From NCBI GenBank assembly GCA_016839745.1, contig JAEOTS010000045.1, positions 15,750 to 79,749 on the forward strand: 64,000 nt of DNA. Reading direction: 5' to 3'. The DNA comes from Promethearchaeota archaeon (GTDB taxonomy: Archaea > Asgardarchaeota > Lokiarchaeia > Sigyniarchaeales > SOKP01). The position numbers and the translations under genes were made by a program. The notes under the pieces are model-generated. The model searched no databases. It saw only the letters and a program-made list of their open reading frames with translations, and was not told the DNA's origin. Shown piece after piece: positions 29,518-33,263 of this stretch. Within the stretch, counting starts at the first letter, position 1, and every line of letters starts with the position of its first letter.

Positions 29518-29784
29518 TTACGAACTAAGTAATTGAAATAGTATCGTAGCATGAGGGATATAGAATTGGTCTTTAACTTTAATTACGACAGTATGAAAGT
29601 ATTCAGCTAAACCTAAAAAACCCCTTATAACAGATTCGTCCTCTTCGAACTTAAATACTACTCTAGCTATAGCTGCGCCAGTACTAAAGTTGGCTTTTTC
29701 ATACACCCTTTCATCGATTAAAGGAATTTTCAATTCGTTTACAATTTCATACACACGCTTAATGAAGAGTTCTCTCTTTGGAAT
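29518..29784 (-). CDS. Small hypothetical protein, probable ATT start
   Basis: Track ORF (GTG 29754) extends in frame to ATT-CCA at 29784, preceded by AGGTG; no upstream ATG before an in-frame stop. Confidence 0.65.
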   Translation of the reverse strand: MPKRELFIKRVYEIVNELKIPLIDERVYEKANFSTGAAIARVVFKFEEDESVIRGFLGLAEYFHTVVIKVKDQFYIPHATILFQLLSS

Positions 29785-30058
29785 ATTAAAACACCTATTA
29801 ATATTGAAAACTAATTATTATAGATACAAATGAAATATGATATATAATATATTAGATTTGAACCTTTTAATTGTTTTTTTTTCCAAGAAATTTTTGATTA
29901 GACGGAACTTATTTAGTTAAGTTAAAATCTAAGATGCGATACAAGTATTATAAAAAAATAAAAATAAAAATATAAATTAATATAATACAATTACTACTAT
30001 AGCTATATATTATTCCATAATAAAAAAATAAAAAAAAATTAGAGGAATTGATGGATCG

Positions 30059-30754
30059 TTGGTTTCGAAAGAATATAAGAAGATAGAGAGAGTCGTAAAT
30101 TTTATGAAAAAAGGGTTAACATCCCTATCTGACGATTTAGAAGAAACTGTTAAAGGGATTAATGATTTTATAAAATCATTGGGTAAGGCATTGAAGGATT
30201 TGAAAGATGTCTCTATTGAACCAGAATTAAAAACTGTAAGCACATCCTCTAAAAAAGTCGTTGGTACCTCAACGGGACAAGCAAAAACTGCTGCTGCCAG
30301 TACGTTATTTAATTTACTGAGCGGTAGTCCCGGAGCAGTACAACAAGCGCCACCAACTGCTACCGCGAGTACTTCACCTACGGTTGGGAGCCCTCCTAAA
30401 TCACCTAGTGTTGGTCCTCCAAAAAGACCTGCAAGTGGGGTGCCTCCTAAAGCCCCAATAACTGGCGTAGCCCCTAAACGCTCTAATTTACCACCAGCAC
30501 CAAAATTACCTCCCACTGCTGGAAGTGGTCCCCCCCAAGCACCAAATAAGGGAATAGTTCAAACTCCATCATTTGCCAAAAGACCTGCGGCTCCTGCAAC
30601 AGGCGTTCCTGCAAGACCACCTGGCGCACCTACAGCACCTCCAGCGGTATCGGCTCCAGCAACGGCACCTCAAGCCGGCGGTGGATTAGGTTCTTTACGC
30701 GACGAGATGTTAGAAGAATTAAACCGCTTAAAGAAAATAATGAGAGGAGATTAA
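30059..30754 (+). CDS. Coiled-coil / proline-rich / C-terminal WH2-like helix protein
   Basis: N-terminal heptads; about 110-aa Pro/Ala/Gly/Ser/Thr-rich linker; ends GGGLGSLRDEMLEELNRLKKIMRGD. Confidence 0.8.
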   Translation: MVSKEYKKIERVVNFMKKGLTSLSDDLEETVKGINDFIKSLGKALKDLKDVSIEPELKTVSTSSKKVVGTSTGQAKTAAASTLFNLLSGSPGAVQQAPPTATASTSPTVGSPPKSPSVGPPKRPASGVPPKAPITGVAPKRSNLPPAPKLPPTAGSGPPQAPNKGIVQTPSFAKRPAAPATGVPARPPGAPTAPPAVSAPATAPQAGGGLGSLRDEMLEELNRLKKIMRGD

Positions 30755-30860
30755 GAAACAGACTTTACTACTTTTTGTTAGTCTTTTATATTAGGAATTT
30801 CTTAATTTTTACTTTCTCATTCAACAACTTTTTATTATAAATATCAGATATTTAATATAG

Positions 30861-31607
30861 ATGGAGAATAACAATTCTATTATTAGCGATAACGGAATTC
30901 CTGTTGTAGTTCCTAAACGTATGTTAGTCTTTGCTGGTCACCCAGATGATGAAATTATATCATGTGGTGGAACGATACTTAAATATCAAGCTTTGGGATC
31001 TGAAGTATTCGTAGTTGTAGCAACAAGCGGATTAGGTGGATACGCAAAAAGCGAACAGAAAACCGAGATTGAAAAGCAAAGAAAGCAAGAACTTGAATTA
31101 ATTCAGAAATCTTTGAAATGTAAAATCATCGAATTAGAGTATGTTGATTTAGAAGTCAATAGCGAACATATTTCAGAAATAACCAATTTAATAAGAGAGA
31201 TTAGACCTCATGTTATTCTAATTCCTCATTATTCAGATTTCCACCGTGTTCATAGGAATTTATCTTTAATTACAAAAGAAGCAATCTACCATTGTTCCAC
31301 GGGTAAAGCATATGGAGGATATAAAAGAAATTGGACTCCATTAGGAGTTTATTACTACGAATCCCCTTCTTGCAAGTTCCAATATGTAGAAGGTTCTGTT
31401 TTTATAATAGTAGATATTGAAAAATACTGGCGCGAGAAAAAAGAAATCTTCAATATTGTTTATCTTTCTCAGAAGGAGGTTTTAGAAAGAGTGCTAGAAT
31501 GGGCTGAGGACACAGCAACTTTAAGAGGTAACGAAATTAATTCAACTTATGGGGAAGCTTTTATCCCCGAGACTACATATACTCCGTTGAAAATTTTATT
31601 ATTATAG
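30861..31607 (+). CDS. PIG-L/LmbE family deacetylase
   Basis: FAGHPDDE...CGGT, D.H..H (SDFHRVH), YGEAF motifs. Confidence 0.9.
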   Translation: MENNNSIISDNGIPVVVPKRMLVFAGHPDDEIISCGGTILKYQALGSEVFVVVATSGLGGYAKSEQKTEIEKQRKQELELIQKSLKCKIIELEYVDLEVNSEHISEITNLIREIRPHVILIPHYSDFHRVHRNLSLITKEAIYHCSTGKAYGGYKRNWTPLGVYYYESPSCKFQYVEGSVFIIVDIEKYWREKKEIFNIVYLSQKEVLERVLEWAEDTATLRGNEINSTYGEAFIPETTYTPLKILLL

Positions 31608-31649
31608 ATTCGAAATAACTAATACCAAACATAAAAAAATAAGGAAATT

Positions 31650-32765
31650 ATGGGTAATCTTACTGTTGTTTTAGATATTGGGCAGTTTTCAGCAAAAGCA
31701 GGATTTGCGGGAGAAGATATGCCGTCTCAAGTTTTCTTCACGATTGTAGGAACCCCAAAATATAGACAAATTGATTACGAGTATTCAGGTATTAGAAAAG
31801 ACGATTTTTATGTAGGAGATGAAATTCAATCAATAGGGTTATATAAGGTTTTTTACCCAATAAATAAAGGAATAATCAAGGACTGGCTTTCTTTTGAAAA
31901 AATAATTGATTACATTTTTTACAATTTAAGAGTAGATCCGAGCTTAGTTAACATATTGTTTGCGGTTCATCCTTTATTTCCTTACAGCGATTTAAAGAAA
32001 TTATTTGAATTATTCTTAGAAAAATATCAATGTAATGCGTTTTATCCTGTCTTAGATTCCATGCTTACTTTGTACGCAGGAGGTTTTCAAACAGGTTTAG
32101 TTGTAGAGATCGGAGATAGTCTTACAAGAATAACTCCTATCTATCAAGGATACAAACTAGATCACGCAATTAAACATGTTGATATTGGTGGAAGAACTTT
32201 AACGAGGTTCATGGAAAAAATATTAGGTGAAAAAGGATATTCGTCAGATTCTTCAATTAGGAGGGAACTTGTAAGAGCCTTAAAAGAAAAAGCGTGTTTT
32301 GTATCTCTTGATTATAAAGAGGATTTGAAGAGAGTTGAGCAATACGAAAAGGAATATTCTTTACCGGACGGCTCAACAATTTTTTTAGCTAGAGAAAGGT
32401 TCGAAGTACCAGAATTATTGTTCAATCCATCATTGGAATTAGAGGAGATTTCTCTCCCAGAAGCAATAATGGATGTTATTGAGATGTGCGACTTAGATGT
32501 TCGTCCAGACTTATTAAACAACATTTTTTTATCGGGAGGTTCTTCTATGTTTCCCAATATCAAATCCCGAATTTATCAAGAATTAGAAATTGAATTAGCT
32601 CGCCGAAATAAAAAAAATCAAGTCATTAAAATAATAGCTCCCAGGGAGCGCATTTTCTCTGTTTGGGTTGGAGGATCGATTTTGGCAATGATCCCTGAAT
32701 TCGAGCAGAATTGGATAACCAGAGCGAAATATTACAATGAAGGTATCCCTGACGATCTTCTATGA
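31650..32765 (+). CDS. Actin-family protein (divergent Asgard actin / Arp-like)
   Basis: VLDIG..AKAGFAGEDMP, YVGDE, GLVVEIGD, IGGRTLT, YSLPDG, ERFEVPELLFNP, LSGGSSMF, IIAPRER.FSVWVGGSILA: colinear with actin over its full length. Confidence 0.96.
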   Translation: MGNLTVVLDIGQFSAKAGFAGEDMPSQVFFTIVGTPKYRQIDYEYSGIRKDDFYVGDEIQSIGLYKVFYPINKGIIKDWLSFEKIIDYIFYNLRVDPSLVNILFAVHPLFPYSDLKKLFELFLEKYQCNAFYPVLDSMLTLYAGGFQTGLVVEIGDSLTRITPIYQGYKLDHAIKHVDIGGRTLTRFMEKILGEKGYSSDSSIRRELVRALKEKACFVSLDYKEDLKRVEQYEKEYSLPDGSTIFLARERFEVPELLFNPSLELEEISLPEAIMDVIEMCDLDVRPDLLNNIFLSGGSSMFPNIKSRIYQELEIELARRNKKNQVIKIIAPRERIFSVWVGGSILAMIPEFEQNWITRAKYYNEGIPDDLL

Positions 32766-32897: not shown

Positions 32898-33263
32898 ATG
32901 GAAGGTCCTCAAAATACGAGTTTCGAACAAACTAAAATTCTTAAAAGGTACTATAAGCCAGATTACTCTCAATTATTTAACAAATTAAAGAACATAAAAA
33001 CTCCCGTGAAAAACGAAATTTTAATTTCCTTACTTGACGGAAATTGGCACACAGAGTTAGACTTAATTAGAGTAGCTAAACAAAAAATGAAATATATGGG
33101 TGCTGTAACCTTAGGGACTATGATTCTTTCTTTAAATCATCACTTAAAAAACGATTATGTTGAAAGGAAAGTGATAAACGGAAAGCTGTCTTACAGAATA
33201 TCAGATAACTACGTAGGTCTTACTCGAGCTGCATATAACAAATATAGTTTTAAAATGGACTAA
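32898..33263 (+). CDS. Hypothetical winged-helix-like protein
   Basis: EILISLLDGNWHTELDL...YVERKVINGKLSYRI has wHTH spacing. Confidence 0.6.
   Translation: MEGPQNTSFEQTKILKRYYKPDYSQLFNKLKNIKTPVKNEILISLLDGNWHTELDLIRVAKQKMKYMGAVTLGTMILSLNHHLKNDYVERKVINGKLSYRISDNYVGLTRAAYNKYSFKMD

Follow-up and report, generated by a model that had tools for sequence, protein, structure and literature searches.

What does a small orphan protein, encoded a short way upstream of an actin gene, do in an Asgard archaeon? The question is raised by a 64,000-nucleotide stretch of DNA from a Promethearchaeota archaeon (contig JAEOTS010000045.1 of assembly GCA_016839745.1, positions 15,750 to 79,749), referred to below as the window. 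The protein, designated here the adaptor, has 231 residues, and its gene is followed on the same strand by genes for a PIG-L deacetylase and a divergent actin paralog. An initial annotation, made from the sequence alone, read the three as a candidate actin nucleation module, with a WH2-like motif at the C-terminus of the adaptor and an Arp-like partner in the actin. The substantive findings are a conserved pairing of the adaptor with a second orphan protein, designated c1, and a portable C-terminal helix; the WH2 and Arp-like interpretation is not established.

The adaptor open reading frame (ORF) starts with TTG, has GAGG 12 nucleotides upstream, and encodes an N-terminus, MVSKE, that is kept in homologues. 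Its earlier description, as an N-terminal coiled coil, a proline-rich arm and a C-terminal amphipathic helix, proved accurate by ORF check and by an AlphaFold2 model built from a 31-sequence alignment, and the strings NLPPAPKLPP and GGGLGSLRDEMLEELNRLKKIMRGD quoted from it are found in the protein. The model has an overall predicted template modelling score (pTM) of 0.21; scores by the predicted local distance difference test (pLDDT) are given with the individual parts below.

30059..30754, plus strand: adaptor gene, 231 residues, soluble Lokiarchaeal form of a pan-Asgard family with anchor, proline arm and putative docking helix
30065..30208, plus strand: N-terminal 48-residue helix, residues 3-50, with hydrophobic heptad-like spacing (AlphaFold2 pLDDT ~90)
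30281..30319, plus strand: second short conserved helix, residues 75-87, core motif LFxLLSG (weak helix in AlphaFold2)
30320..30685, plus strand: disordered proline-rich arm, residues 88-209 (without structure in AlphaFold2)
30485..30514, plus strand: NLPPAPKLPP motif within the arm (8 of 10 positions invariant in close homologues, alignment A1)
30686..30742, plus strand: putative C-terminal amphipathic docking helix, residues 210-228 (AlphaFold2 pLDDT ~88)

Comparison of 20 close homologues shows as invariant much of the N-terminal helix, the LFxLLSG motif, the segments TVSTSSKK, AKTAAASTLFSLLSG, NLPPAPKLPP (at eight of its positions) and PSFAKRP, and the final 25 residues. The arm comprises 122 residues, 27% of them proline, and its longest proline run is PP, in agreement with the earlier remark that long poly-proline runs are missing. 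The count of GPPKAP-type repeats in the arm differs between homologues, and NLPPAPKLPP decays beyond the order. A 168-residue glycine-rich ORF lies antisense to the arm (30010..30516, minus strand). It is a mirror of the arm and was not taken as a gene because the conserved frame is that of the plus strand, although gene callers could choose it over the real gene.

A search space of 5.8 billion proteins yielded 192 adaptor homologues, none with a Pfam domain, and all those that carry a name come from Lokiarchaeota- or Promethearchaeota-type assemblies. In the family numbering used here, f1 is the window's own family, f2 its sister family, and f3 to f29 are other Asgard families. A profile of the full protein finds the adaptor in 60 of 68 f1 genomes and in all seven f2 genomes, with weaker matches in other Asgard families. 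Pfam and NCBIfam gave no match to the adaptor, to c1 or to the tails, and the ESM Atlas, queried with the adaptor and c1, returned only their own unnamed Asgard clusters. We found no description of the adaptor family in the literature.

The end helix reaches much further than the full-length profile. A 36-column profile of the tail was run on 301 sampled Asgard genomes, 90 of them high-quality, and matched 259 of the former and 85 of the latter, mostly once per genome; in the window's own genome no second tail-bearing protein was found, the tail there being single-copy. The same profile, run on 1.84 billion representative proteins at a cut-off of E<=0.001, produced 47 matches. Ten of these were looked up, five carry an organism name, and all five are labelled Asgard. 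Across the phylum the tail follows the pattern L-[RKQ]-x-[EQA]-M-[LM]-x-E-[LIM]-x-[RK]-[LI]-K-x-[ILMFY]-[MFI], in which L213, M217, E220 and K225 are invariant and E216 and R223 nearly so. The tetrapeptide LKK[TVI] alone carries no weight, since it is present in 6.8% of this genome's ORFs of at least 150 residues. The tail as a whole exceeds what chance would be expected to produce, to judge by its invariance in 20 of 20 close homologues and its recognisable form phylum-wide; conservation of this helix, which the initial annotation had named as something to check, is therefore present. The adaptor family must be viewed as undescribed and Asgard-specific; most Asgard genomes have it, usually in a single copy.

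Two architectures share this tail. Soluble-type adaptors, like that of the window, are found in f1-f5, f14, f21 and f23; the N-terminal helix is conserved in every one of these in alignment, and is presumed to oligomerise the protein or to hold c1. Membrane-type adaptors, in f7, f9, f15, f17, f18 and f29, have in order an N-terminal transmembrane (TM) segment, basic residues, a coiled coil, a proline arm and the same end helix. The tail of this type should be cytoplasmic because the positive residues come after the TM segment. A protein of 549 residues, P0268, joins a TM segment to a complete soluble-type adaptor, tail included, and to a C-terminal TIR domain (PF13676); it may be a real fusion or an artefact of gene calling or assembly. 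Zero to one genes away from the membrane-type adaptor in f7, f9, f15, f17 and f18 stands a gene identified by eye from its motifs as ribose-5-phosphate isomerase A (loci L047-L053, L069, L072 and L073), for which no functional reason is apparent.

The distribution of the TM anchor bears on one alternative, in which the end helix would bind membranes as an amphipathic helix and so bring a soluble protein to them. MinD and FtsA are known to have membrane-targeting helices at the C-terminus, and the adaptor tail is amphipathic, with a hydrophobic moment of 0.42. That moment is unexceptional, being reached by 12% of shuffles, the net charge of the tail is 0, its invariant residues include acidic ones, and most family members already carry a TM anchor. 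We consider such a role highly unlikely.

The end helix is also reused on other scaffolds. Two tandem copies stand between a Ras-like GTPase domain and a Cys-rich, zinc-ribbon-like one; other proteins with a zinc-ribbon-like domain bear two to three copies at the N-terminus; further Ras-like GTPase proteins carry it at their C-terminus; and it also occurs as three 40-residue repeats and on a TM-TIR protein. Among the proteins that have one to three copies, joined to Ras-like GTPase domains or to a CxxC...CCxC domain that has no annotation, are P0244, P0248, P0254, P0276, P0280, P0281 and P0274. A PDB sequence search with P0248, of the zinc-ribbon type, gave no match, and the gene neighbourhoods of P0254 and P0280 were uninformative. 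In f29 the membrane-type adaptor gene is followed directly, on its own strand, by a gene for an Arf-like GTPase of about 315 residues (L071:1945-2895 and L074:2175-3113, both minus strand). This recurrent association of the tail with small GTPases may point to a different hub.

Clustering of neighbouring genes, which took in 20 distant loci, exposed c1 as the conserved neighbour of the adaptor. In the window it occupies the opposite strand, across an intergenic region.

29518..29784, minus strand: c1, 88-residue orphan alpha/beta protein, divergent from the adaptor; its homologues adjoin the adaptor across families
29785..30058, no strand assigned: AT-rich intergenic region separating the divergent c1 and adaptor genes, presumed from sequence to hold both promoters

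No ATG, GTG or TTG stands at the position where c1 homologues start; the frame opens at ATT (29782-29784), 7 nucleotides behind AGGTG, and ATT is apparently the start codon. None of 390 c1 homologues carries a Pfam domain, and sizes stay at 88-90 residues across distant loci. A c1 profile finds the protein in f1 (62 of 68 genomes), f2 (6 of 7), f3, f4, f5 (4 of 4), f14 (16 of 19) and f23 (3 of 3), weakly in f21, and in one f9 genus (g53). It was not found in the searched genomes of f15, f17, f18 and f29, nor in the sampled f7 and f9 genera that have membrane-type members. In f1, f3, f4, f5, f14, f21 and f23 it directly adjoins the tail-bearing adaptor, in divergent, convergent or co-directional arrangement, and because adjacency persists through such rearrangement the two bear the mark of a functional pair.

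AlphaFold2 models c1 with a pLDDT of 92 as a helix plus a beta-alpha-beta-beta-beta unit. No significant fold relative emerged: the best Foldseek match to the PDB had an E of 0.2 and the best match of VIA-align wide a Z of 4.5, re-ranking left only a weak resemblance to one beta-alpha-beta-beta-beta module as found in the glyoxalase fold (Z <=3.9), and the roadblock fold is absent among the structure matches listed. No fused form of c1 was found among proteins of at least 204 residues, which is weak evidence. The protein co-occurs with the soluble adaptor head, and the LFxLLSG helix is present in lineages that carry c1 as well. In the f9 genus c1 lies beside a different coiled-coil protein of about 530 residues, with an end resembling a winged helix-turn-helix (wHTH) and a segment, SALDFVEKLDG, resembling the LFxLLSG helix (L061:4930-6514, plus strand, split by a frameshift or stop; L062:1130-2737 and L063:2804-4387, both minus strand). 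Since c1 follows the soluble head and adjoins an LFxLLSG-like protein in f9, we infer a pattern that suggests binding of a short LFxLLSG-type helix by c1.

To what, then, would the end helix bind? The initial annotation took it for a WH2 motif, and on that view the adaptor would be a nucleation-promoting factor of the WH2 type, partnered by the Arp-like actin next to it: its arm would recruit profilin-actin, and the helix plus LKKI would deliver G-actin. The layout does recall WASP and VASP, the tail most often reads LKK when families are compared, and tandem tails followed by a zinc-ribbon-like domain recall Spire, by analogy only. The profile evidence is negative: searched with hmmscan, neither the whole adaptor at E<=1 nor tails of 30-45 residues from four lineages at E<=10 matched the WH2 profile PF02205, with the reservation that HMMER filters may lose very weak matches, and PDB matches of the tail profile include no WH2 chain. 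The earlier observation of an amphipathic helix directly before LKKI is upheld; there is, however, no linker at all. The helix-to-LKK spacer is zero residues (spacing ML-EE-L-NR-LKKI), and AlphaFold2 gives one continuous five-turn helix, 210-228, with LKKI inside it. The position after LKK is I, L, M, F or Y in every family, never the T or V of a WH2 motif. Across families the L/I and the first K are constant, and the second K varies (K in f1, f2, f5, f7, f18, f21 and f29; E, S, R, A, T or G elsewhere). The end helix is not a recognisable WH2 domain. Loki and Odin profilins are moreover reported not to bind polyproline (PMC8410842), which bears on the proposed role of the arm.

The actin gene itself formed the other half of that proposal, and its surroundings were compared across the family. 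The gaps of 106 nucleotides between adaptor and PIG-L and 42 nucleotides between PIG-L and actin were confirmed, as was the plus-strand orientation of all three genes.

30861..31607, plus strand: PIG-L/LmbE-type deacetylase (PF02585, 85 bits)
31650..32765, plus strand: divergent actin paralog, 371 residues (PF00022, 303 bits)
32898..33263, plus strand: 121-residue wHTH-like gene that follows the actin paralog syntenically in f1 (no Pfam match)

T-runs and a TATA-like box follow the adaptor stop codon upstream of PIG-L, while the PIG-L to actin gap has AGGA before the ATG and no T-run. These signals suggest two transcripts, with PIG-L and the actin paralog probably transcribed together and the adaptor apart.

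The genome has five actin-family genes, among them two canonical lokiactins, at 442 and 432 bits, and the neighbour of the adaptor, at 300 bits; for Lokiarchaeum ossiferum four actin homologues have been described, three of them called ARPs (PMC9834061). The best 60 PDB matches listed for the neighbour, scoring about 300 bits, are conventional actins without exception; the alignments run from end to end (6-365), and the matched chains mostly have 365-384 residues. The supposed Arp-like partner is thus a divergent actin of the same length, not Arp2- or Arp3-like and without Arp2/3-type insertions. Read by eye against the genome's lokiactins, phosphate loop 1 has changed from DNGTG to DIGQF and the equivalents of Q137, D154 and H161 to D, E and R; hydrolysis of ATP is likely to be changed. 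Another member of the actin family in this genome, a 510-residue ORF at 219 bits on the minus strand of locus L004 (G000:C93:45110-49102), contains some 130 inserted residues, with two zinc-ribbon-like CxxC...CxxC motifs among them, ahead of the final actin segment.

Linkage of adaptor and actin was counted in a first set of 30 f1 loci and two further ones, L054 and L055, 32 in all. The paralog lies downstream of the adaptor in 27 of the first 30 and in both additional loci, which counts in favour of the original proposal and hints at actin as a partner. Three f1 loci (L006, L018 and L035), two of them in the window's own genus, keep the adaptor and PIG-L without the paralog; in two of the three, a gene for a membrane protein on the opposite strand takes its place. 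PIG-L is a facultative insert between adaptor and paralog, no full-length copy being present at 9 of the 32 loci (at L019 there is only a 67-residue match). Downstream of the paralog in f1 come a homologue of the wHTH-like gene (L020, L054 and L055) and a topoisomerase gene on the other strand (L054 and L055). In f2 the adaptor and an orthologous paralog of 53-58% identity are 44-70 kb apart, and the topoisomerase and wHTH genes are scattered. Searches of f4, f5 and f14, where the adaptor is present, gave actins of only 26-44% identity, none above the lokiactin level, and no orthologue was found.

The linkage holds within f1 and is lost in f2. Outside this order no orthologue of the paralog was found, whereas the adaptor family spans the phylum, and a dedicated adaptor-paralog pair is contradicted because the adaptor family exists in lineages that have no paralog. 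The wHTH gene and the unrelated topoisomerase gene are syntenic in f1 as well. Adjacency to actin is a family-level feature of the adaptor and not a defining one, and the WH2 and Arp-like module must be judged very improbable.

Another possibility is that the end helix serves self-association, as a coil comparable to a leucine zipper or to the VASP tetramerisation domain, and so cross-links adaptors. The best PDB matches of the tail profile are non-significant coiled coils, the end of the GCN4 zipper (ARLKKLVGE) lining up with NRLKKIMRGE of the tail. The hydrophobic spacing, 4-4-3-4, would suit such a coil, and E and K residues are placed for possible inter-helix salt bridges. The VASP tetramerisation domain (PF08776), which the initial annotation had named as an alternative identity, gave no match to the whole adaptor or, at E<=10, to the tails, and its coil of about 45 residues compares with a helix of 19 here, short for a stable coiled coil. 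Tandem arrays of two to three copies with flexible linkers, and the placement of the helix on unrelated scaffolds, also argue against self-association, as does the phylum-wide retention of E216, E220, R223 and K225, which suggests a specific receptor. We regard self-association as improbable.

An MIT-interacting motif (MIM) is a further candidate. In this case the end helix would be a MIM-like ligand of an MIT domain, in Vps4 or elsewhere, and would recruit ESCRT to the membrane or to a site defined by c1. The MIM1 consensus of ESCRT-III is (D/E)xxLxxRLxxL(K/R). Read by eye on alignments A3 and A4, the tail fits positions 4, 8, 11 and 12, with M217, L221, L224 and K225, and does not satisfy the consensus, positions 1 and 7 having the opposite charge (R214 and the invariant E220). 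LPPAPKLP of the arm loosely resembles a proline-type MIM2, and membrane-anchored forms of the adaptor exist. No MIM-bearing chain occurs among the PDB matches of the tail profile, and no ESCRT gene lies beside any of the roughly 60 loci examined. An hmmscan of eight membrane-type members against CdvA and steadiness-box models (PF18822 and PF09454) at E<=1 gave no match, returning only faint SHOCT, GvpG or RRF-type coiled-coil noise. The MIM assignment is unlikely, if less so than self-association.

Alongside the architecture, conservation, phyletic spread, c1 pairing and end-helix reuse observed here, we offer a reading of function: the protein is, with modest assurance, probably a tethered docking-helix adaptor, similar in layout to arcadin-2. 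Each member has three parts: a head that would anchor or oligomerise it, an extended and flexible arm rich in proline, and the near-invariant amphipathic C-terminal helix of 19 residues. The head depends on lineage, consisting here and in several classes of the 48-residue helix and the LFxLLSG helix beside c1, and in most other classes of a TM segment and coiled coil. It would fix or multimerise the protein, through c1 or the membrane, while the arm would act as a spacer that extends reach and the end helix would dock in trans onto one very conserved cytoplasmic partner. Such a layout is common to arcadin-2, ParR and WH2-type ligands.

As to the partner, a platform linked to small GTPases, or some other protein, is our tentative first choice. 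The hydrophobic groove of lokiactin is a possible but rather doubtful partner; the arcadin-2 precedent, the adjacency within f1 and the proline arm speak for it. A Vps4/MIT-type domain is unlikely, and what probability remains belongs to self-association or membrane binding. The pattern of actin and MIT occurrence across genomes gives no discrimination between these partners.

Several observations weigh against the tethered-adaptor reading or its actin version. The protein c1 cannot be the receptor of the tail, because it was not found in the searched genomes of four families with membrane-type members, nor in the sampled f7 and f9 genera that have them. Around some 30 loci outside f1 there is no actin context. 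Within f1 the adjacency to actin runs no deeper than that to topoisomerase, and it is missing at the three loci named above. Families f19, f22 and f11 have no detectable tail yet have actin, and f22 and f11 have MIT domains as well. The closest, non-significant PDB resemblance, to the GCN4 zipper end, leaves room for self-association. Finally, the significantly enriched proteins that a lokiactin co-immunoprecipitation study (10.1101/2025.11.30.690169) names include gelsolins, a profilin and an Arf GTPase, and no such adaptor.

A more specific and rather speculative form of the tethered-adaptor reading, which we think somewhat unlikely, is that of an Asgard actin-attachment tether, anchored in the membrane or through c1, whose end helix would sit in the barbed-end groove of lokiactin while the arm might gather profilin-actin. 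If true, it would be a pre-eukaryotic, non-homologous counterpart of assembly factors of the WH2, VASP and formin types, and its GTPase-fused or GTPase-adjacent versions would hint at GTPase-controlled actin assembly before eukaryotes. Whatever the partner, two Asgard families without annotation, those of the adaptor and of c1, emerge from the analysis together with a putative portable docking motif. Because the adaptor is Asgard-specific, widespread, usually single-copy and equipped, on a long flexible arm, with a short helix that ranks among the phylum's most conserved, it very likely plugs into a core cell machine, be it actin, ESCRT or a GTPase platform.

In the literature consulted, the actin regulators described for Asgard archaea are profilins and gelsolins, with no nucleator, elongator or membrane linker among them (10.1101/2025.11.30.690169; PMC9433394). 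The only WH2-like contact with Asgard actin that we found there is the motif LVDV/LKDV/LRRV of two-domain gelsolins (PMC9433394), an extended strand between two gelsolin domains, whereas the adaptor tail is a free terminal helix on a proline arm. With eukaryotic WH2 proteins (PF02205; WASP/WAVE/WIP, thymosin beta-4 and Spire) the adaptor shares an amphipathic helix near L-K-K after a proline-rich region, and other Asgard proteins have the helix in tandem arrays; the tail differs in having neither profile match nor linker, a bulky hydrophobic residue for T/V, five helical turns against about three, and an LKK that is not strictly conserved. In Ena/VASP, too, a single small protein has a proline-rich region together with oligomerising and terminal helices, but in a different order, and the adaptor has no EVH1 domain, PF08776 match or polyproline runs. 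ESCRT-III tails with MIM1 resemble it in ending with an amphipathic helix that follows a flexible linker, partly rich in proline, and the hydrophobic register and terminal lysine agree, but two charged positions are inverted and the adaptor has neither an ESCRT-III core nor ESCRT gene context.

Arcadin-2 of Pyrobaculum calidifontis (PDB 5LY3) offers the closest archaeal precedent. In this crenactin regulator a linker of unconserved sequence leads to a conserved C-terminal helix, which by itself binds the hydrophobic groove of crenactin, with a dissociation constant of 31 nM (PMC5173319). The two proteins have no evident sequence relation, and arcadin-2 binding uses a tryptophan, which the adaptor tail does not have. 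Adjacency to actin is confined to one family of adaptors, and the adaptor linker is proline-rich and some 120 residues long. Both are archaeal and consist of a core, an unstructured linker and a small C-terminal helix; the adaptor, like arcadin-2, keeps that helix conserved behind a linker that is not. Arcadin-2 is encoded beside an actin homologue, as the adaptor is in f1.

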